Of a DNA stretch of 64,000 nucleotides, positions 15,103 through 51,248 are shown piece by piece. The stretch is taken from positions 160,001 to 224,000 of the forward strand of contig JAXHMG010000003.1 of the NCBI GenBank assembly GCA_034521595.1. Direction: 5' to 3'. Origin of the DNA: Gemmatimonadota bacterium. GTDB lineage: Bacteria; Gemmatimonadota; Gemmatimonadetes; Longimicrobiales; Gaopeijiaceae. Position 1 is the stretch's first letter. Each line of letters opens with the position of its first letter. The notes under the pieces are model-generated. The model worked only from the letters and a program-made list of their open reading frames with translations. It was not told the origin of the DNA and made no database searches. The position numbers and the translations under genes are program-made.

Positions 15103-15930
15103 TCAGCTCTCCCGCCCGGCGGCTGCACGTCCGACTTCGATCGCTTCGGGCTCCGTCACGATGAAGAAGCGGAACCCTTGCTCGATGCGGGATTCGATGT
15201 CGTCCACACCCGCGGTGATGCCGCAGGCGACGTCCTGTTCCAGGCACGCGGCGAGAACGGTCTGGATCGCGTTCTCCACCGCCTCCATATCGCCTTCATA
15301 GGCCCGGCGGAGGTCACCCGGCCCCGGGATGACGACGCCCGCGCCCGGCGTGCCGACGATCTCGGTTGCGCGCTCGATGCCGATCTGGTCTTCGATGAGC
15401 AGCACGTTGAGCACATCTCCGTCCGGATTCGTCGGCCAAAGGCGGTCCCCGACCGCTTCAGCCGCGAGCTCGGCGTCTTCGACCGACTCCACGTGCGGGT
15501 AGACGATCGCGCTCGCCCCGGCCGCGAGGCCCTGAGCCGTACGCTCGACGGCGGCTTCCCGGTCGTCGCGGATCGGAGGGATGCGCAGCGCGAGCGGGGG
15601 CGGGGGACCGGCCGAGGCCTCCTCCAGGCCCGTCATGTATGCACCCATGGCATCGAGGTCGAATGGCCCGGACTCGAGCGAGTAGAAGACGAAGTCGACG
15701 CCGCTGTTCTCCGCCATCATCCTGCCGCCTTCAGGCGTCTGCTCTCCGGAGAAGATCCCGAAGACCACCTCGTCGTCCTCGAGCAGCTCGATCATACGGT
15801 TGCCCTGCACGGCTTGGGACGCGGGCGTGTCGGACATCTCCGCGCCGTCGTCGCCCTCCGTACCGCAGGCCGAGAGCACCAGCGGCATGAGCGTCAGTGC
15901 TAGAAAGGACTTCGCTCGCATTCCTGTCAT
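15103..15930 (-). CDS. HpcH/HpaI aldolase-like lipoprotein
   Basis: Lipobox LSAC. LRIPP, IVYPHVES, LIED, PGPGDL, RIEQGFRF. Start 15930 or 15921. Confidence 0.75.
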   Translation of the reverse strand: MTGMRAKSFLALTLMPLVLSACGTEGDDGAEMSDTPASQAVQGNRMIELLEDDEVVFGIFSGEQTPEGGRMMAENSGVDFVFYSLESGPFDLDAMGAYMTGLEEASAGPPPPLALRIPPIRDDREAAVERTAQGLAAGASAIVYPHVESVEDAELAAEAVGDRLWPTNPDGDVLNVLLIEDQIGIERATEIVGTPGAGVVIPGPGDLRRAYEGDMEAVENAIQTVLAACLEQDVACGITAGVDDIESRIEQGFRFFIVTEPEAIEVGRAAAGRES

Positions 15931-16129
15931 GACATGATCCCTTGAGGTCCATGGAAATCGGAGACACCGATGTAACGTCCTCGGGCCTTTCGCGACAGGG
16001 TCCGAGGGTCGTTGGGTAACTCGTGCAGGTGGCTCACTCCCGTGGGCGGGGGTACCTTTTCGCCTTGGGCACGGCGCACGAACTACGGGGCTCCGTCCGG
16101 TCCCCACCGTCACTCGAGAAGGATTCACG

Positions 16130-16735
16130 ATGCTCAATCGGCCGCGTTTCGCCCCAATGATCCTCGCCGTTCCGTTCATTCTGGGATCGTCGGGCTGCGC
16201 CACGGTCCAGCAGATGATGGCTGTGCGTGACGTCGATTTCTCGTTCGACCGTGTGGCGGAGGTGAACCTTGCCGGGATCGATATCGAGGCGGTGAGCTCG
16301 TTCTCCGAGCTCGGTCTTTCCGACGCCAGTCGGTTGATGACGGCCGTATCCGAGCGTGACCTTCCCCTGACGCTGGATGTGCACCTCCGAGCGCTGAACC
16401 CGGAGGACAACGCGATCGATGCTCGGCTGGTCCGCATGGATTGGACGCTTCTCATCGAAGGGCGGGAGACGCTGTCCGGTGTGTTCGACGACGAGGTCGT
16501 GCTGCCGCCGGGAGAGCCGAGAGACGTGAGGGTGCCCGTGTCATTGAACCTCGTGGAGTTCTTCGACGGCTCGGCTCGAGACCTCGTGGAGCTCACGCGC
16601 TCTTTGGCCGGGATCGGAGGGAGACCGGCCGAGGTCGCTCTCAGGGCATCTCCCGTCGTGGAGACTGCCGTGGGTCCGATCCGGTATCCGAGACCGTTAA
16701 CTCTCGCGCGCGGCACCGTGGGAGGTGCGCGGTAG
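16130..16735 (+). CDS. LEA_2/WHy-domain lipoprotein
   Basis: Lipobox SSGC. Pattern L-x-A-x-NP...RMDWTLLIEG typical of LEA type 2. Confidence 0.65.
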   Translation: MLNRPRFAPMILAVPFILGSSGCATVQQMMAVRDVDFSFDRVAEVNLAGIDIEAVSSFSELGLSDASRLMTAVSERDLPLTLDVHLRALNPEDNAIDARLVRMDWTLLIEGRETLSGVFDDEVVLPPGEPRDVRVPVSLNLVEFFDGSARDLVELTRSLAGIGGRPAEVALRASPVVETAVGPIRYPRPLTLARGTVGGAR

Positions 16736-42389: not shown

Positions 42390-43367
42390 ATGAACCCGCC
42401 GCGCAAGCTGAGTCGTCGTGCTTTCTTGACCCGGAGCACCATGGGAGCGGCCGGCCTCGGTCTGGCCGGCGTCGGTCTGGACGTGGGGTTCGGCGGACGG
42501 GAATTGGAATCGGCTCTACCCCGCGCGCGAGGGCAGTTCCCCGTCGTCGCCTCCGAGCCGTGGGGACGCATCCTCCGAATCGCGGACCGGGTCTGGGCGC
42601 TCGAATCCGACCCTCTGACCGATCGCACGACGCTTTGCAATGGCGGCATCGTGGCGGGGAGAGCCGGGGTCGTCATGATCGAAGCCTTCGGCTCGGACGA
42701 AGGCGCTCGGTGGATGGCGCGGCAAGCGGAACGGCTGGCCGGCCGGCCGCCCACGCACGTGGTGCTCACGCATCACCACGCGGACCACACGTCGGGCCTT
42801 CGGGGAGCGACCGAGACGCGCGGGCTCGAAATCCTCGCCACCGCCGCGACTCTGGAACGAGTCGCCGAGGCCTCTGGCACCCCGGAAGCGGCACCGGAAG
42901 CGGATGTCACCGTCATCGGGGACGGTCGTCCCACGGAGCTCGACCTCGGGGACCGCTCTCTCCTGCTCGTTCCGCGGCGGGGGCATACCGCTTCGGACCT
43001 CACCGTCGAAGTCTTCGATGCTCCGGTCGTCTTCGCGGGGGACCTCGTTTGGAACGGCATGTTCCCGAACTACGTCGACGCGAGTCCGGGACGCCTTTCC
43101 CGGACCGTTCGCGTCCTCAGGGCGCGTGGCGCGGAGATCTACGTGACCGGGCACGGTGCCCTCGCGGACGGCGAGGCTCTCGATCGCTACATCGACCTCC
43201 TCGACCATGTGGAAGGGGCGGCACGCACCGCGGCCGCCGAAGGATGGTCGGCGGCGGAGGCCGCCGCGCGCTACCGGCTCCCCGCCGAGATGGAAGACTG
43301 GACGTTGTTCGACCCCGGATACGTCCAACGTGCCCTCGGCGCGTGGCTCCGCGAGTTGGAGGGATGA
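42390..43367 (+). CDS. Tat-exported MBL-fold metallo-hydrolase
   Basis: SRRAFL, THHHADH, GHT, FAGDL, TGHG. Confidence 0.85.
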   Translation: MNPPRKLSRRAFLTRSTMGAAGLGLAGVGLDVGFGGRELESALPRARGQFPVVASEPWGRILRIADRVWALESDPLTDRTTLCNGGIVAGRAGVVMIEAFGSDEGARWMARQAERLAGRPPTHVVLTHHHADHTSGLRGATETRGLEILATAATLERVAEASGTPEAAPEADVTVIGDGRPTELDLGDRSLLLVPRRGHTASDLTVEVFDAPVVFAGDLVWNGMFPNYVDASPGRLSRTVRVLRARGAEIYVTGHGALADGEALDRYIDLLDHVEGAARTAAAEGWSAAEAAARYRLPAEMEDWTLFDPGYVQRALGAWLRELEG

Positions 43368-43406
43368 CAATTGTGTAGTATCGTCTAGCGCATACGACAA
43401 AATTGT
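43367..43406. promoter_or_regulatory. Paired ACA-N4-TGT sites upstream of the activator gene (candidate autoregulatory operator)
   Basis: ACAATTGTGT at 43367 and ACAAAATTGT at 43397, 30 bp apart. Confidence 0.6.
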
Positions 43407-43451
43407 AACCCCCGTGCTCGGGGGCGCCCTTCATCGGACGGACGCCATTCC

Positions 43452-45002
43452 GTGGACCGACGCGACGTACGCAAGCTCTCCACTCTGCTCGAGGTCAGCC
43501 AGACGCTCGGCTCGACGCCCGACCTCCGCACGGCGCTCGTGCGCGTGCTCGAGATCCTCGAGGAGCGACACGGAACGGTCGCGGGCGCGGTCACCCTCTT
43601 CGATCGTGACTCGGGGCGGCTGGCGATCGAGGCCGCGACGGGCATCACCTGGCAGGTGCGGCGGCGGGCGTCGTACAAGCTCGGCGAGGGCGTGACCGGA
43701 CGCGTCGTGCAAAGCGGCAAGCCGGTGGTCGTGCCCCGGGTGAGTCACGAGCCGCTCTTCCTCGACCGCACCGGGGTTTGGAAGGAAGGCGGTCACGACG
43801 AGCTGAGCTTCGTGTGCGTGCCCGTCTCCGTGGACGGACGAACGGAGGGGAGCCTCGGCGTCACCGTTCCGTACGATGGGAATCGCTCGTTCGATCGCGA
43901 GACCGAGTTTCTCGGGGTGGTCGCCTCGATGGTCGGGCAGTCGGTGCGGGTTCATCGGCTCGTCGAGACGGAGCGCGAGCGACTCCTGGAGGAGAACAGC
44001 CAGCTTCGCCAGGAGCTCAAAGAGCGCTACGAGTTCCGGAACATCATCGGCAACAGCCGTGAGATGCGGGAGGTGTACGAAGAGGTGGCGCAGGTGGCGG
44101 GGAGCCCGACCACCGTCATGATCCGCGGAGAGTCCGGGACCGGAAAGGAGATGGTCGCTCACGCCATCCACTACAACTCTCCTCGTGCCGAGCGCCCTTT
44201 CGTGAAGGTGAGCTGCGGGGCGCTCCCCGAGAGCCTGATCGAGTCGGAGCTCTTCGGATACGAGCCCGGGGCCTTCACCGATGCCCGCGCCCAGAAGAAG
44301 GGCCGCTTCGAGCTGGCGGACGGGGGGACGCTCTTTCTCGACGAGGTGGGCGAGCTGTCGCAGTCCACCCAGGTGAAGCTCCTGCGGGTGCTCCAGGAGC
44401 AGGAGTTCGAGCGGTTGGGCGGCGTAGAGTCCATCGCGGTGGACGTGCGCGTGATCGCCGCGACCAACAGAGACCTCGAGGGCGCGATGCGCGAGGGCGA
44501 GTTCCGTGAGGATCTGTATTACCGCCTCAACGTGTTCAGCATCTTCATGCCGTCGCTCCGGGACCGGAAACCGGACATTCTCCTGCTCGCGGATCACTTC
44601 GTCGACAAGTACGCGACCAAGCTGGGTAAGCCCGTCCGCCGGATCTCCACGCCGGCCATCGACATGCTGATGAGCCACCACTGGCCGGGGAACGTGCGGG
44701 AGCTCGAGAACTGTATCGAACGGGCGGTGCTGGTCTGCAACGGTGGGGTGATCCACGGTCACGACCTTCCGGCGACGCTTCAGACCGCACAGGTGTCGGG
44801 GACGCTCCCGGGTGCCTCGCTCGAGGACGCGGTGGGAAACTACGAGATGAACCTCATCGCGGATGCGCTCAAGACCGCGCGCGGCAACCAGGCCGAGGCC
44901 GCGAGGCTTCTCGATACGACCCCACGCGTGATCGGGTACAAGGCGAAGAAGCACGGTATCGATCCCGATCGCTACCGGGCCCCGGGGCGCGTCGACGGCT
45001 GA
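43452..45002 (+). CDS. Sigma-54 enhancer-binding protein, GAF-AAA-HTH (NifA-like)
   Basis: GAF ([14 protein letters not shown]), [41 protein letters not shown], Fis-type HTH. No receiver domain. Confidence 0.9.
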
Positions 45003-45068
45003 TCCGCCGGGCTGCCTCGTGTACGCCCGGGCCCATTCGCTTCTTCGTCTCCCCTTGTCCCCCATGCA

Positions 45069-45108
45069 ACGAAATTGTCGTTGTATAGGGCTAGGCCTAC
45101 AAAATTGT
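45069..45108. promoter_or_regulatory. Paired upstream activator sites of the glnB operon
   Basis: ACGAAATTGT at 45069 and (CT)ACAAAATTGT(AG) at 45099, 30 bp apart, 100-140 bp before the -24 element. Confidence 0.65.
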
Positions 45109-45178
45109 AGCTCTTTTTTGGCGCGTGGGTTTCGGCATCTGATCTTGTAAGTTCTTGCAGCCATTGAGGTTGTGGTGA

Positions 45179-45634
<456 letters not shown>

Positions 45635-45689
45635 CGCCCGCCCCGCTCCCGTCCCAAGTCCCTTCCCACTCCACACGGTGATCCGAGTG

Positions 45690-47060
45690 ATGAAGCATCA
45701 CATAGATACGGCGTTCTCGCGCATCCTCCTCCCGGGCCTGGCTCTGCTCCTCGCGTCACTGGCCGCTCCCGCCGCGTTGGCGGCTCAGTCGGAGCCTTCG
45801 GTCGATTCCGTAGCGGCCGCGACAGAGCTCGTACAGCGCCACGCGGATTTTCTCTGGACGCTCCTCGCGGCCATTCTCGTGTTCCTCATGCAGGCCGGCT
45901 TTTCCTTGATCGAGGCCGGCATGACTCGGGCGAAGAACGCCGTCAACATATGCATGAAGAACCTCATGGACCTTTCCCTGGGGTCGTTGGCGTTCTGGCT
46001 CGTCGGCTTCGGGATCATGTTCGGACCGAGCGGCGGCTGGTTCGGCACCAGCGGGTTCATGCTCTCCGACTACGCGGCGGACCAGGATCCGTGGCTCTAC
46101 GTCTTCTGGATCTTCCAGACGGTATTCGCGGCGACCGCGGCGACCATCGTGTCCGGAGCGATGGCCGAGCGAACCAAGTTCTCGGCCTACATCATGTACA
46201 GCGTCTTCCTCACGGCCCTGGTCTATCCCGTGTTCGGAAGCTGGGCGTGGGGGAGCCTGCACAAAGGTGACGGTTGGCTCGAAGGGCTGGGCTTCATCGA
46301 CTTCGCCGGCTCCACGGTGGTTCACAGCGTAGGAGGATGGGGCGCGCTGGCGGGCGCCCTGGTCATCGGGCCTCGGCTCGGCCGGTTCACCGCCGACGGC
46401 AAGCCGCGCGCGATGCCCGGGCACAACCTGATCTTCGCTACCCTCGGCATGTTCATCCTCTGGTTCGGTTGGTTCGGGTTCAACGCGGGGAGCACCACTG
46501 CGGCGACCTCCGACATCGCCCTGATCGCGGTGAACACGAACCTTTCGGCCGCGGCGGGCGCGGTCGCTGCGATGCTCACGTCCTGGACCTTCCTCAGGAA
46601 GCCCGACGCGACCATGACGATCAACGGAGCGCTCGCGGGTCTCGTGGGCATCACGGCGGGGTGCGCGAACGTCGTGCCCGGGTCGTCCATTCTCATCGGT
46701 CTGATCTCCGGGGTCATCGTCGTCTTTTCCGTGCTCTTCTTCGACCGGCTTCGGATCGACGATCCGGTCGGGGCGATCTCCGTGCACGGGGTGTGCGGCG
46801 CGTGGGGTACGCTCGCCGCCGGCTTGTTCAACGTGGGCGGCGTGACCTGGGCCATAATCGGTACGCAGCTCCTGGGCATCGCGGCCGCCTTCGTGTGGGC
46901 GTTCGGCATGATGTTCGTCTTCTTCAAGGTGGTTCACGCGACGTTCGGCATCCGGGTTTCCCCCGAAGAGGAAATCGCAGGCCTGGACGCCTTCGAACAC
47001 GGCAACGAGGCGTACGGCCCGGACACCTTCAGCTCCGACGCGCACGGGGTAACGGCGTGA
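45690..47060 (+). CDS. amtB: Ammonium transporter
   Basis: MQAGF, SGAMAER, DFAGSTVVH, WFGWFGFNAGS, DDPVGAISVHG. Confidence 0.95.
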   Translation: MKHHIDTAFSRILLPGLALLLASLAAPAALAAQSEPSVDSVAAATELVQRHADFLWTLLAAILVFLMQAGFSLIEAGMTRAKNAVNICMKNLMDLSLGSLAFWLVGFGIMFGPSGGWFGTSGFMLSDYAADQDPWLYVFWIFQTVFAATAATIVSGAMAERTKFSAYIMYSVFLTALVYPVFGSWAWGSLHKGDGWLEGLGFIDFAGSTVVHSVGGWGALAGALVIGPRLGRFTADGKPRAMPGHNLIFATLGMFILWFGWFGFNAGSTTAATSDIALIAVNTNLSAAAGAVAAMLTSWTFLRKPDATMTINGALAGLVGITAGCANVVPGSSILIGLISGVIVVFSVLFFDRLRIDDPVGAISVHGVCGAWGTLAAGLFNVGGVTWAIIGTQLLGIAAAFVWAFGMMFVFFKVVHATFGIRVSPEEEIAGLDAFEHGNEAYGPDTFSSDAHGVTA

Positions 47061-47134
47061 GGAGCCTTCCCATGCTCATCGAGTCCGACGGTCGGCCGAC
47101 TCGGGTTCGCTCCCGTCATACATCCACTTCCAGA

Positions 47135-47785
47135 ATGACCAAATCCATGATGAAGCCTTTGATCGTCGCCGTGTTCCTGCTCTCGCTCTCCCTCCCCTCC
47201 CGGGCGGTGAGTCAGGAGGTCGATATGACGGCCAACGTCGGCTGGGTGAGCGAGTATTTGTACCGGGGCATCCCGCAGAACACCTCCTCCGCCAGCATGG
47301 GCCTCGACCTGGCCGTGGGGCCCGTGTATCTGGGCACGTGGGCGGCTGATGTCGGGGAAGGCGCCGAGGTGGATCTCTACGGGGGCGTGGGCATCGACGT
47401 GCACGGGCTCGCCCTCAGCGCCGGCGGGACGGGTTATCTCTACACCGGAGAGTTCGACGACACGTATGCGGAGGGGAACTTCGGCGCCGCCTATGGGCCC
47501 GTGTCCGTGGATTTCGCGGTGGGACGGTATCTCACCGATCCCGAGACCCTCGACTACACCTTCCTGGTGGTCGGAGGAGAGGTGCGCGGGTGGTACGCGA
47601 ACCTCGGGCGGTTCGACGGGGACTTCGACGGCATGTACGGCGAGCTCGGATACGGCTTCACCGTCAGCGAGATCGACTTCACCGTCGGTTGGGTGTTGAG
47701 CGATGCCGAGCTCGCCTTGCTTCCTTCGGGTAGGTCGAATGCCACACTGGTCCTGGGGCTGTCCCGGGTCTTCACGTTGAGGTGA
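47135..47785 (+). CDS. TorF/Gcw_chp-like putative outer-membrane porin
   Basis: Signal peptide, SEYLYRGIPQ, EVDLYGG, alternating beta pattern. Family is commonly linked to glnK-amtB. Start could be 47135, 47147 or 47150. Confidence 0.75.
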   Translation: MTKSMMKPLIVAVFLLSLSLPSRAVSQEVDMTANVGWVSEYLYRGIPQNTSSASMGLDLAVGPVYLGTWAADVGEGAEVDLYGGVGIDVHGLALSAGGTGYLYTGEFDDTYAEGNFGAAYGPVSVDFAVGRYLTDPETLDYTFLVVGGEVRGWYANLGRFDGDFDGMYGELGYGFTVSEIDFTVGWVLSDAELALLPSGRSNATLVLGLSRVFTLR

Positions 47786-47794
47786 GTCGACGCC

Positions 47795-50506
47795 ATGCGC
47801 ATCCACGAGCACCGGCTACAGCGTCACGCGCAGCAGCGACTCGAGAAGGTCCCGGCCGAAACGGCCAAGCGGATCCGGTCGTTTCGCTCGTTTCTCGAGC
47901 TCGAGTCCGAGCACCTGAGGCGACGCCACGAGTTCGGCCTCGGGGGGCGGGAGATCGCTCGTGGGCGGAGCGACTTGGTGGATGTAGTGGTGGGGCGGGC
48001 GTGTCGGGCGGTGGCCGAGGACCTGGGGCCTACCGCCCGAGAAGAGCTGCGCGGCTGTGCGGTGGTGGCGTTGGGGGGGTACGGGAGGGGGGAGTTGTCT
48101 CCGTGCTCGGACGTGGACCTCCTCTTCCTGCACCCCGGCCGGCCTTCGGCGCTCGTCACCGACTTCGTGGAGGCCGTGCTGCCGCTGCTCTGGGACATCG
48201 GGCTGGAAGTGGGGCACAGCGTTCGCTCGGTTCCGGATTGCGTGCGTTTCGGCCGTACCGATTTGCATGCGCGCAACGCGATGTCGGAGGCTCGCCTGCT
48301 CCTCGGAAGCGAGGCTCTGTTCGATCGGCTTCGGTCCGAGATGCGTGTCAAGGTCTACGGTCAGCCGAAGGCGAACCGGTTCTTCAAGGAGGCCATGGCC
48401 GCGGAAGTCGAGGACCGGCGCGGTCGGTTCGGCTCCGTGGTCGGCATGCAGGAGCCCCATCTCAAGGAAGGAGCCGGCGGACTCAGGGACCTGCACCTGG
48501 TAGGTTGGGTCGGACTCGCCCGTTGGGGCTTCGGGCATCCGGACGAGCTCGTGCGCGCCGGGATCGTGACGGTGGCCGATCACGCCCGTGCCCTGCGGGC
48601 GTACGACTTCATTCTGCGGATCAGGAACGAGGCCCATTTCCAGACGGGGCGGCGCACCGACCTCATCTCCCTGGAGCTGCAGCCCGATCTCGCCAGCGCG
48701 CTCGGATACGCCGATCAGCGGGTGGCTTCGGCTTCGGAGATCTTCATGCGGGATTTTTACCTGCGGGCTCGCGAGCTCCTGCGCTTCTGTGACGCCTTTC
48801 TGGTCCAAGCGGATTTCTGGACTCCGGACGAGGGCGTTCTGTCGCTTCGGAACCGGCCGGCCGCTCGTGCCGTGGGGCCACACGGCCGGTACCGGCTGCG
48901 GGACGGGCGCCTCTTCGCGGCAGGCGAGGGTGCTGCTCGCCAGGACGATCCGATGCGCCTCTTCGAGGTCTGGGAGGTCGCCCAGAAGCACGGGGCGCGC
49001 GTGAGCGAGGAGTTGCTTCAGGAAGCACACGCCAACCTCGACGTGGTGGATCGTCGGGTCCGTCAGTCGCCCGAAGCGTCGGCCGCCTTCCTGCGCATGC
49101 TGGGGCGGGTCGGCCGGGTCGCGCTCGCCTTGCGGCCGATGCACGAGGCCGGATTGCTCGCGAAGTACCTGCCCGAGTTCCGGCGGGTGACACTGATGGT
49201 GCAGCACGACCACTACCATCGCTATACCATCGACGAGCACACGCTCAAGGCGGTGGAAGCGCTCGATGCTCTCGCGGATCCGGCCTCCCGTCCCGAGGCC
49301 CTCGCGGACCTGGGCGACGCATTGGAGGCGGTGGCCGACGTGCGCCGTCTGGCGCTGGGGATCCTTCTGCACGACATCGGCAAGGGCCAGGGCGGAGATC
49401 ACGTGACGAAGGGGGCTCACATCGCGAAGCGTGTGTGCCGGCGCCTGGGGTTGGACGAAAATACCACGTCCGACGTGGTGTTTCTCGTGGAGAACCATCT
49501 CGTCATGTCACGGATCTCTCAGCGTCGCGACCTGACGGATCAAGCCGTGGTCCGGGGCTTCGCCGAGACGGTGGGAAGCCTGGATCGGCTGCGGATGCTG
49601 TACGTGCTCACCTATGCCGACATTCGGGCGGTCGGGCCCGAGACGTGGAACGACTGGAAGGCGGCCTTGCTTCGCGAGCTCTTCGAGCGGACCGAGCCGC
49701 TCCTCGACGGGGGACGCACCCGTCCGGGGGAGCGTGACGTGGATGTCGCGGAACGTGTGCTCGAGCACCTTCCCGGAGAGCTCCGGAAGAGTGATGTCGA
49801 CGCCTTCCTGGACCGCTTGCCGTCACGGTACGGACGGTTGGTGCCTCCGGCTCTCATCGCGCGCCATGTCGAGATGACGCGCCAACTCGAGGACCGTCCG
49901 GTCTTGGTCGATTGGCGAGCTTCCGAGCGCGGCCCTTATACCGTGGTCACCACCTGCTTCAGGGACGCGCGGGGCAGGCTCGGTCGATTGGCGGGCGCCC
50001 TCACCGGCGCGGGCCTCGACATTCTGAGCGTCGACGTGTTCACGCGCGACGACGGTTTGGCTCTCGACGTGTTCAGGGTGAGCGAGGCCATGGGACCTCG
50101 GCAGGTTCAGCCGGTTCCCGAGCCTCGATGGCACGAGATCACCGCCCAGCTCGAAGCCGTGCTCGCCGGAAAAGCGGATCCGAGTGAAGCGGTCGAGCGT
50201 CAGCGGACGCGCCAGATGCGTCGGAGGGCCCGCCGGCCGCCTGCTTCGCCCCTCGTGCGGTTCGTGCCGCCCGACCGCTCGAACCGGACCGTCCTGGAGG
50301 TCCGGGCGGACGACGAGCCGGGCGTAGTCTATCGGATCGCGAAGACGTTGGCCGGGCTCGATCTCGACATCAAGCTGGCCAAGATCGCGACCGAGAAGAA
50401 CCAGGCGCTCGACATCTTCTACGTCACCGAGGAGGACGGATCCCCGCTCGGGGCGGATCGCCGGTCCGAGGTGGAGTCCGCTCTGCTCGAAGCGCTGGGG
50501 ATTTAG
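47795..50506 (+). CDS. glnD: [Protein-PII] uridylyltransferase/uridylyl-removing enzyme
   Basis: ALGGYGRGELSPCSDVDL, KEGAGGLRD, YHRYTIDEH, LLHDIGKG, two C-terminal ACT domains. Confidence 0.92.
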   Translation: MRIHEHRLQRHAQQRLEKVPAETAKRIRSFRSFLELESEHLRRRHEFGLGGREIARGRSDLVDVVVGRACRAVAEDLGPTAREELRGCAVVALGGYGRGELSPCSDVDLLFLHPGRPSALVTDFVEAVLPLLWDIGLEVGHSVRSVPDCVRFGRTDLHARNAMSEARLLLGSEALFDRLRSEMRVKVYGQPKANRFFKEAMAAEVEDRRGRFGSVVGMQEPHLKEGAGGLRDLHLVGWVGLARWGFGHPDELVRAGIVTVADHARALRAYDFILRIRNEAHFQTGRRTDLISLELQPDLASALGYADQRVASASEIFMRDFYLRARELLRFCDAFLVQADFWTPDEGVLSLRNRPAARAVGPHGRYRLRDGRLFAAGEGAARQDDPMRLFEVWEVAQKHGARVSEELLQEAHANLDVVDRRVRQSPEASAAFLRMLGRVGRVALALRPMHEAGLLAKYLPEFRRVTLMVQHDHYHRYTIDEHTLKAVEALDALADPASRPEALADLGDALEAVADVRRLALGILLHDIGKGQGGDHVTKGAHIAKRVCRRLGLDENTTSDVVFLVENHLVMSRISQRRDLTDQAVVRGFAETVGSLDRLRMLYVLTYADIRAVGPETWNDWKAALLRELFERTEPLLDGGRTRPGERDVDVAERVLEHLPGELRKSDVDAFLDRLPSRYGRLVPPALIARHVEMTRQLEDRPVLVDWRASERGPYTVVTTCFRDARGRLGRLAGALTGAGLDILSVDVFTRDDGLALDVFRVSEAMGPRQVQPVPEPRWHEITAQLEAVLAGKADPSEAVERQRTRQMRRRARRPPASPLVRFVPPDRSNRTVLEVRADDEPGVVYRIAKTLAGLDLDIKLAKIATEKNQALDIFYVTEEDGSPLGADRRSEVESALLEALGI

Positions 50507-50591
50507 TAGCCTCGCGTCCGGCGGGGGGCTCGGCGCTCCGAGCGCCTCGGTCGCTCGGTCGTGGCGAGCACGGCGTGTGAGCCACGGGCTA

Positions 50592-51248
50592 TCAGGGGTA
50601 GAGGCGGACGGTGCGCCACTCCGCCCCCACGCGCTCGAAGACGATTCGGTCGTGGAGACGGTCGTCCCGGCCTTGCCAGAACTCGATCCGTTGGGGGGTG
50701 AGGCGGTATCCGCCCCAATGCGGCGGCAGGGGGATCTCGGTTTCTTCGAAGCGTCGCCGGACATCCCGGACGCGCTGCTCGAGCTCCGCGCGGGACGCCA
50801 GCGGACGACTTTGATCCGAAGCCCACGCACCGATCTTGCTGCCTTCCGGGCGCGTGCTGAAGTAGCTGTGGCTTTCCTCCTCGGAGACGCGCGCCACCGG
50901 CCCTTCGATGCGTACTTGCCGGTCCTGCTCTTTCCAGTGGAAGCAGAGTGACGCGTGCGGATTCGCGTCCAACTCCGATGCCTTTCGACTCCCGTAATTC
51001 GTGAAGAAGGTGAAGCCCTGGTCGTCCATTCCCTTGAGGAGCACCATGCGGACGGAGGGGCGGCCTTCGGGCGTCGCCGTCGCGAGCGCCGTGGCTTCGG
51101 GAAGCTCCACGCCATCATCGCGCGCGGCATCGAACCAGCGCTCGAAGAGATCCAGGGGATCCTGCTCGTCATCCAGTTCCAGTTGGTGCGGTGCTCGCCC
51201 GGGCCCCGTGAGCGGCTCCCCTCCGGATGGGGCAACCCTTTCCGACAT
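50592..51248 (-). CDS. pdxH: Pyridoxamine 5'-phosphate oxidase
   Basis: PSVRMVLLK, FFTNYGSRK, GAWASDQS, WGGY, IEFWQG...LHDR, LYP. Confidence 0.95.
   Translation of the reverse strand: MSERVAPSGGEPLTGPGRAPHQLELDDEQDPLDLFERWFDAARDDGVELPEATALATATPEGRPSVRMVLLKGMDDQGFTFFTNYGSRKASELDANPHASLCFHWKEQDRQVRIEGPVARVSEEESHSYFSTRPEGSKIGAWASDQSRPLASRAELEQRVRDVRRRFEETEIPLPPHWGGYRLTPQRIEFWQGRDDRLHDRIVFERVGAEWRTVRLYP

Follow-up and report, generated by a model that had tools for sequence, protein, structure and literature searches.

A NifA-like sigma-54 activator and a putative ammonium-scavenging cassette in a Gemmatimonadota genome

What does a NifA-like activator regulate in a genome in which no nitrogenase is found? 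This question is raised by a locus at positions 43,452 to 50,506 of a 64,000-nucleotide stretch (the window) of a Gemmatimonadota genome (GCA_034521595.1, contig JAXHMG010000003.1, positions 160,001 to 224,000). The locus contains five genes, encoding the activator, a PII protein (glnB), an ammonium transporter (amt), a porin candidate and GlnD, which are all intact and all on the + strand. Sequence and phylogenetic analyses suggest that the activator very probably controls the promoter of the glnB-amt-porin-glnD genes. The cassette is likely to be a small self-regulating sigma-54 unit for ammonium scavenging, driven by this NifA-like protein. An earlier note, made from the sequence alone, had described a GAF-AAA+-helix-turn-helix (HTH) activator with a GAFTDA loop, a sigma-54 site, and then PII, AmtB, a TorF-like porin and GlnD. 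Profile searches and coordinates confirmed all of these elements.

Paired palindromes and a sigma-54 promoter

Both flanks of the activator gene contain 12-bp palindromes (consensus KACR-W4-YGTM), which are arranged in pairs 30 bp apart. The features of the locus are as follows.

43366..43407 (43366-43377 and 43396-43407): upstream site pair, 45-86 bp before the activator start; 37.0 bits, the second-best pair of the genome
43452..45002, + strand: one-component sigma-54 activator, 516 aa, GAF-AAA+(GAFTDA)-Fis HTH, identified with Pfam and NCBIfam
45068..45109 (45068-45079 and 45098-45109): putative enhancer, site pair; 38.7 bits, the best pair of the genome
45148..45157, - strand: weak candidate for a site of IHF-type bending, in the enhancer-promoter gap
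45210..45224, + strand: sigma-54 -24/-12 element, TGGTAT-N5-TTGC
45296..45634, + strand: glnB/glnK, PII, 112 aa, PF00543, with Tyr51 in the T-loop
45690..47060, + strand: amt ammonium transporter, PF00909, above the TIGR00836 cut-off
47135..47785, + strand: Gcw_chp/TorF-like outer-membrane beta-barrel, PF09694, with candidate start codons at 47135, 47147 and 47150
47795..50506, + strand: glnD, uridylyltransferase/uridylyl-removing enzyme (UTase/UR), 903 aa, with UR/UTase, HD and ACT domains

A site matrix was built from 24 sites of eight related loci, and the window's own sites were left out. When the host genome (G000; 3.49 Mb, 93% complete, 67% G+C) was ranked with this matrix, the two pairs of the window came out on top; the next pair scored 20.1 bits and lay inside a coding region. 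The best pair at other spacings (24-39 bp) reached 18.2 bits. The third pair of the genome, at C2:173350 within a large coding region, and a pair at C3:1012474, in A+T-rich sequence that has no strict sigma-54 site, were taken as chance occurrences.

Counted from the inferred transcription start, the enhancer sites are centred near -162 and -132, and relatives show the same geometry. The sigma-54 element is among only 11 strict matches in the genome and is kept at the same place in relatives. Of the 114 site pairs in 108 loci, 83 are spaced 30-31 bp apart. The centre of the proximal site was located for 21 promoter-pair combinations, taken from 23 chosen loci: it falls at -131 to -135 in 11 of them and at -121 to -123 in five. 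These two classes are one helical turn apart, which is the face-of-helix pattern expected of an enhancer. The IHF-type site was found in four of the 21 enhancer-promoter gaps, all four from the host's own genus.

The sites also accompany more distant homologues. In a metagenome sample of 80 loci of GAF homologues, most of them short, a site of at least 12 bits was found upstream of the gene in 52 of the 76 loci with enough flank, downstream in 8/55, and in coding controls in 1/73. No NtrC-type box was found near the glnB promoter, and neither a sigma-70 promoter nor a + strand terminator was found in 43200-51000. The upstream activator sequence of NifA is TGT-N10-ACA; no such sequence was present in the flanks of the window activator or of 12 related loci. 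In a relative (G003), the activator-glnB gap is 724 bp (L094:9764-10483). Within it, at a distance of 146 bp from the same pair, another sigma-54 pattern points in the opposite direction. A divergent small RNA or short gene is possible there.

The activator contains a GAF domain (24-164), a sigma54-interaction domain (198-364) with a GAFTDA loop, and a Fis-HTH domain (465-500). In the profile search it matched PF00158 (E 6.9e-73) and also PF02954. It scored 526.1 bits against the TIGR01817 nifA profile (cut-off 528.85) and 328.5 against TIGR01818 for NtrC (cut-off 558.6); its N-terminus is a GAF domain, without a receiver (REC) domain. The AAA+ domain with Walker A/B motifs, the GAFTGA-type loop and the Fis HTH are features of the sigma-54 bacterial enhancer-binding proteins (bEBPs), and rpoN was found in the genome. 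By these features the activator is a bEBP, and it would open its promoter in an ATP-dependent manner. The full-length model consists of the GAF domain, a long coiled-coil helix (147-192), the AAA+ domain and the HTH; its AAA+ part is poor (pLDDT 69, pTM 0.45), and the fold search matched general bEBPs only.

Linkage of the activator, its sites and nitrogen genes

The distribution of the activator was surveyed in relatives, with at most 24 candidates per genome scored. The activator was found in 7 of 61 relatives, all seven of which carry amt, and in 0/39 relatives without amt. Its gene is followed by PII-amt-glnD in G003, G004 and G001, and by amt-PII in G009, G015 and at locus L019. In Acidobacteriota (the phylum of G061), 28 of 201 genomes contain the activator. 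The synteny set from this phylum comprises 28 loci from 26 genomes; G113 was left out, and G061 is outside these 26. The 61-relative and 201-genome tallies include the unpublished genomes G056 and G113, and no claim is based on those alone. The site pair was present at 20 of the 28 Acidobacteriota loci. An amt, PII, glnD, glutamine synthetase (GS) or gltBD gene was near the activator at 17 of these loci and at 20 of the 80 metagenome loci.

The sites also appear in trans. In activator-bearing genomes, the pair precedes 7 of 15 unlinked amt, PII or glnD operons, five of them with an adjacent sigma-54 pattern; in 14 relatives where no activator was detected, none of the 15 amt loci has the pair (two with short upstream flanks). 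Nitrogenase was found in none of 34 activator-bearing Gemmatimonadota and Acidobacteriota genomes, and none passed the ntrC cut-off (at most 34 candidates scored). The site pairs, their geometry, the synteny, the trans test and the lack of nif genes together support control of the operon by the activator, and with it the earlier proposal that a NifA-like protein acts as an ammonium-scavenging regulator. As an activator-enhancer-promoter unit, the predicted circuit is well supported as real and widespread.

Several observations weigh against this conclusion. The pattern that selected the matrix sites was written after the window sites had been seen, which is mildly circular, and the related genomes are not independent. 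At the threshold used, no pair was found at 8/28 Acidobacteriota activator loci or before 8/15 unlinked nitrogen operons, and 11/28 Acidobacteriota loci had none of the queried nitrogen genes. One activator-bearing spirochaete genome (G063) does hold nitrogenase. At least eight REC-type bEBPs remain in the host genome, where the ntrC cut-off is strict, and co-regulation by one of them is possible.

The earlier note had also stated that nif and ntrBC genes are absent from the window. The absence of nif extends to the genome: PF00148 had no match in the 93% complete assembly, and PF00142 gave fragmentary P-loop matches only. For ntrBC the extension is partial. None of the 11 bEBPs exceeded the TIGR01818 cut-off and none of the 27 kinases exceeded the NtrB cut-off, yet a Caulobacter in the control set fails the ntrC cut-off too, so the test rules out only an enteric-type NtrC.

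The same note's picture of a self-contained nitrogen circuit proved too wide. The host genome contains a 728-aa GS (its length suggests type III) as well as gltB and gdh, and neither its GS nor gltBD has a site pair or a strict sigma-54 site. The regulon in this genome therefore appears to comprise two promoters only. The locus is an uptake-and-sensing cassette and not a full substitute for NtrC. In some relatives (L265, L271, L267 and L319), GS or gltBD does have the pair. Just before the host GS gene (C3:2575628-2575760, L011) lies an A+T-rich, palindrome-like alternating T/A run in this G+C-rich genome, which might be where another nitrogen regulator binds.

The origin of the cassette was considered from the phylogenetic tree and from gene co-occurrence. 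The Gemmatimonadota activators nest among those of Acidobacteriota, and among Gemmatimonadota relatives glnD occurs only with the activator (4/6 activator-bearing genomes vs 0/18 others). Both would fit a cassette that was gained by transfer.

The other proteins of the operon were also characterized. The amt gene is the sole amt match in the genome. GlnD scored 660.7 against TIGR01693 (cut-off 519.4). The porin candidate exceeded the PF09694 cut-off and scored 43.7 against TIGR02001 (TorF), below the cut-off of 47.15. Its model has 12 beta-strands (pLDDT 89) and is structurally most similar to porin-type barrels, which supports a predicted beta-barrel fold. The porin is an accessory, as it is not in the operon of G003, G004 and G006. 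A second PF00543 match in the genome (C3:1071570-1071854, L013) is flanked by genes for a CzcA-type RND transporter and for a CDF metal exporter, and was set aside.

Several neighbouring genes and other likely targets were observed. A gene for a Tat-type metallo-beta-lactamase-fold protein (42390-43367) ends before the activator, and the first operator site shares bases with its stop codon. The same gene is found ahead of the activator in G003, G004 and G006, not in G001; its best matches are SoxH-like hydrolases, every one below cut-off. In relatives, other likely targets include a second TorF-like porin, a BBP2 porin, molybdopterin oxidoreductases and a urea/amide-type binding protein (L280:8551-9444, L287:7083-8492, L266:5149-8055, L270:11173-13347, L159:2254-3627). 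The molybdopterin oxidoreductases adjoin a tetrapyrrole methylase, and a role in assimilatory nitrate reduction is possible. At one Acidobacteriota locus (L018:13793-13798, 15104-16458), glnD and amt look frameshifted in tblastn, which may reflect long-read assembly errors.

Signal input and alternative controllers

The sites seen in the flanks suggest the following mechanism. Dimers of the activator would bind in two places: on the pair of palindromes that lies upstream of the glnB promoter, at about 132 and 162 bp, and on the second pair, before the activator's own gene. Going by the biochemistry of bEBPs, nitrogen shortage would cause the GAF domain to free the AAA+ domain, which would then oligomerise and reach the sigma-54 polymerase by DNA looping. 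The opened promoter would lead to the production of PII, Amt, the porin and GlnD. From its position, the upstream pair (43366..43407) is a putative autoregulatory operator, probably repressing, and would most likely damp activator synthesis.

How the GAF domain perceives nitrogen shortage is the next question. The earlier note had proposed that GlnD uridylylates PII and that the modified form (PII-UMP) acts on the activator. As a working principle of the family, this loop was not borne out. GlnD was found in 18/37 activator-bearing genomes (several incomplete), and G009, which is 97% complete, has no glnD match. With positions taken from pairwise alignment, Tyr51 is missing from 20/38 non-duplicate PII proteins of activator loci (42 rows minus three duplicates and one row of an activator-less genome). 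The PII that follows the 78%-identical activators of L097 and L019 has Val51, and G009 is one of the genomes with such close homologues. Tyr51 PII and GlnD both occur in the host genome, but not across close homologues. The scattered presence of GlnD and Tyr51 means that PII-UMP is not a family rule, which favours a metabolite bound by the GAF domain. Such a ligand is the most likely input, ahead of direct PII binding. The NifA of Azotobacter vinelandii has a GAF domain that binds 2-oxoglutarate (PMC12998190). By homology, we guess that the input might be a directly bound small metabolite, 2-oxoglutarate first and glutamine second, with a chance a little short of even. In the host, GlnD and the Tyr51 PII most likely gate the Amt channel, as outputs of the circuit and not as its obligatory sensor.

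An input through PII binding, of either kind, is doubtful. PII was found in 30/33 activator-bearing genomes; it was not found at E 1e-15 in G064, G065 and G074, for which completeness is not stated. The predicted complex of the GAF domain with a PII trimer scored 0.00, which gives no verdict and weighs neither way. Two forms of this input were considered, each of them unlikely. In the first, nitrogen limitation leads GlnD to uridylylate PII, and the resulting PII-UMP switches the activator on by binding its GAF domain, so that the cassette would contain a positive feedback. The near-constant presence of PII, the intact GlnD and Tyr51 of the window, and the restriction of glnD in Gemmatimonadota relatives to activator-bearing genomes are consistent with this loop, and the GlnB/NifA systems of Azospirillum brasilense and Herbaspirillum seropedicae are precedents (PMC9866876, PMC3023670). 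The PII proteins that lack Tyr51, including those beside the 78%-identical activators, and the 19/37 genomes in which no glnD was seen, G009 among them, argue against it. In the second form, unmodified PII (ADP-bound, at low 2-oxoglutarate) inhibits the activator, so that the operon would make its own inhibitor and uridylylation would merely sharpen the switch. This is compatible with PII of both kinds, with or without Tyr51, and with the near-constant presence of PII; the NifA of Rhodobacter capsulatus is inhibited by PII (PMC9866876). The three activator-bearing genomes without a PII match speak against it.

Apart from the preferred metabolite input, the promoter might be driven by a different protein. 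A REC-type bEBP encoded elsewhere could activate it, and the GAF activator would then be a mere neighbour or only a repressor. Ten other bEBPs are present in the genome, most with a REC domain, and dual control is reported for DVU1231-33, with DVU3220 as co-regulator (PMC4641369). However, the site pair goes with the GAF activator from one phylum to another, both in cis and in trans, and the promoter has no NtrC box. The neighbours of the other bEBPs, read from translations of open reading frames, hint at roles in pili, exopolysaccharide and efflux. Control by such a bEBP is very unlikely.

The phylogenetic position of the activator bears on whether it might be a regulator of nitrogen fixation. 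Two GAF classes were found in Desulfovibrionaceae: one occurs in genomes without nitrogenase and sits behind iorAB-like genes (5/6 loci scanned), and the other has nitrogenase genes as neighbours. In the best tree of 45 proteins, the window clade and the iorAB-linked class form a 100/100 branch, apart from the nif-linked regulators and proteobacterial NifA (97/92); the NifA rows were named by organism and similarity, and the iorAB-linked proteins have a long branch. The approximately unbiased (AU) test of a forced grouping with the nif-linked and NifA proteins was borderline (p 0.052). The AAA+ and HTH domains of the activator are closer to the iorAB-linked proteins, whereas in its GAF domain it resembles the nif-linked class more. 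A true nif activator, with nif genes lost or absent from the assembly, is largely refuted by this tree, by the 0/34 nitrogenase count in related activator-bearing genomes and by flanks without TGT-N10-ACA, although the nifA profile score misses the cut-off by only 2.75 bits, the assembly is 93% complete, the AU test is borderline and JGI labels most top relatives 'Nif-specific regulatory protein'.

Relation to known nitrogen regulators

Beyond Proteobacteria, Firmicutes, Actinobacteria and cyanobacteria, little has been described of how nitrogen is controlled. The literature searched, which covered few subscription journals, yielded no experimental work on regulators of this class for Acidobacteriota or Gemmatimonadota. 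The locus is a compact testable case, with one activator, one promoter and one enhancer with exact predicted sites. The site pair could be used for mapping the nitrogen-starvation regulons of uncultured phyla. As the JGI names of most top relatives illustrate, a 'NifA' annotation in soil or sediment metagenomes is no evidence of nitrogen fixation. Tentatively, and with clearly less than an even chance, a large NifA-like subfamily might be the standard regulator by which Acidobacteriota and other non-proteobacterial phyla respond to ammonium status. It would travel as a portable cassette, which would have entered one Gemmatimonadota lineage together with glnD, and its GAF domain would read nitrogen status directly or through swappable PII proteins, uridylylated or not.

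The target operon is of the same kind as the one under NtrB-NtrC control in Herbaspirillum (nlmA-glnK-amtB, PMC3023670), which also has a sigma-54 promoter. Unlike NtrC, the activator here has no receiver domain and no cognate kinase, and GS is outside its regulon. Proteobacterial NifA (A. vinelandii, Azospirillum, rhizobia) shares the GAF-AAA+-HTH architecture, 39-47% identity, and a GAF domain with 2-oxoglutarate or PII as input, which for the activator here is putative. The differences are that the activator here has no nif genes, an inverted site (ACA...TGT vs TGT-N10-ACA), a separate clade in the best tree and a score below the TIGR01817 cut-off. The closest solved GAF domain is that of Aquifex aeolicus Nlh1 (PDB 4g3k, 4g3w; E 2.6e-36 by profile), ahead of NifA; the comparison covers the GAF domain. 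A review ascribes to Nlh1 a coiled-coil signalling helix, an unknown ligand and a probable role in the assimilation of nitrogen, not its fixation (PMC9866876).

The closest known system is that of DVU1949, a one-component EBP that was predicted to regulate amt-glnB-glnD, glnA, gltBD and its own operon (Kazakov 2015, PMC4641369). In the supplement of that paper, the DNA-binding-domain (DBD) row labelled 'DVU1949' matches the nitrogenase-linked class and the 'DVU0569' row the iorAB-linked class; the comparison covers loci L247-L255 and L256-L264, and the labels of the first rows seem shifted. Because these labels conflict with gene context, DVU1949 was assigned by context, and the iorAB context is the one given for it (PMC4641369). 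The sites of the nif regulator DVUA0143 have an ACA-W4-TGT core similar to that of DVU1949 (PMC4641369), so the motif marks a wider group; the common core suggests possible cross-talk between the two paralogues.

Like the window activator, DVU1949 is a one-component GAF EBP, with a palindromic site before its targets and its own operon. Among its predicted targets is amt-glnB-glnD (DVU1231-33), which has a sigma-54 promoter, and it was predicted to regulate itself (PMC4641369). The TACA-W4-TGTA core of its sites is the same as the window core, as compared by eye with the published list (PMC4641369). The two proteins share only 42-46% identity, and the loop is GAFTGA in DVU1949 and GAFTDA here. 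Both loops occur within the activator family, and GAFTDA is also present in DVU2106, which is listed with targets (PMC4641369). The DVU1949 regulon is global and unlinked (nine operons including glnA and gltBD, by computational prediction), whereas the activator here is linked and has two predicted targets; a fixed 30-bp pairing is not reported for DVU1949 (PMC4641369). The earlier note had put the system forward as its best candidate for an undescribed one, which is not supported, as work of 2015 had predicted for Desulfovibrionales a one-component GAF-type EBP that acts on amt-glnB-glnD, glnA and gltBD by way of the same motif (PMC4641369). The regulator class is thus one already predicted in sulfate-reducing bacteria, and the locus adds a new member in Gemmatimonadota.

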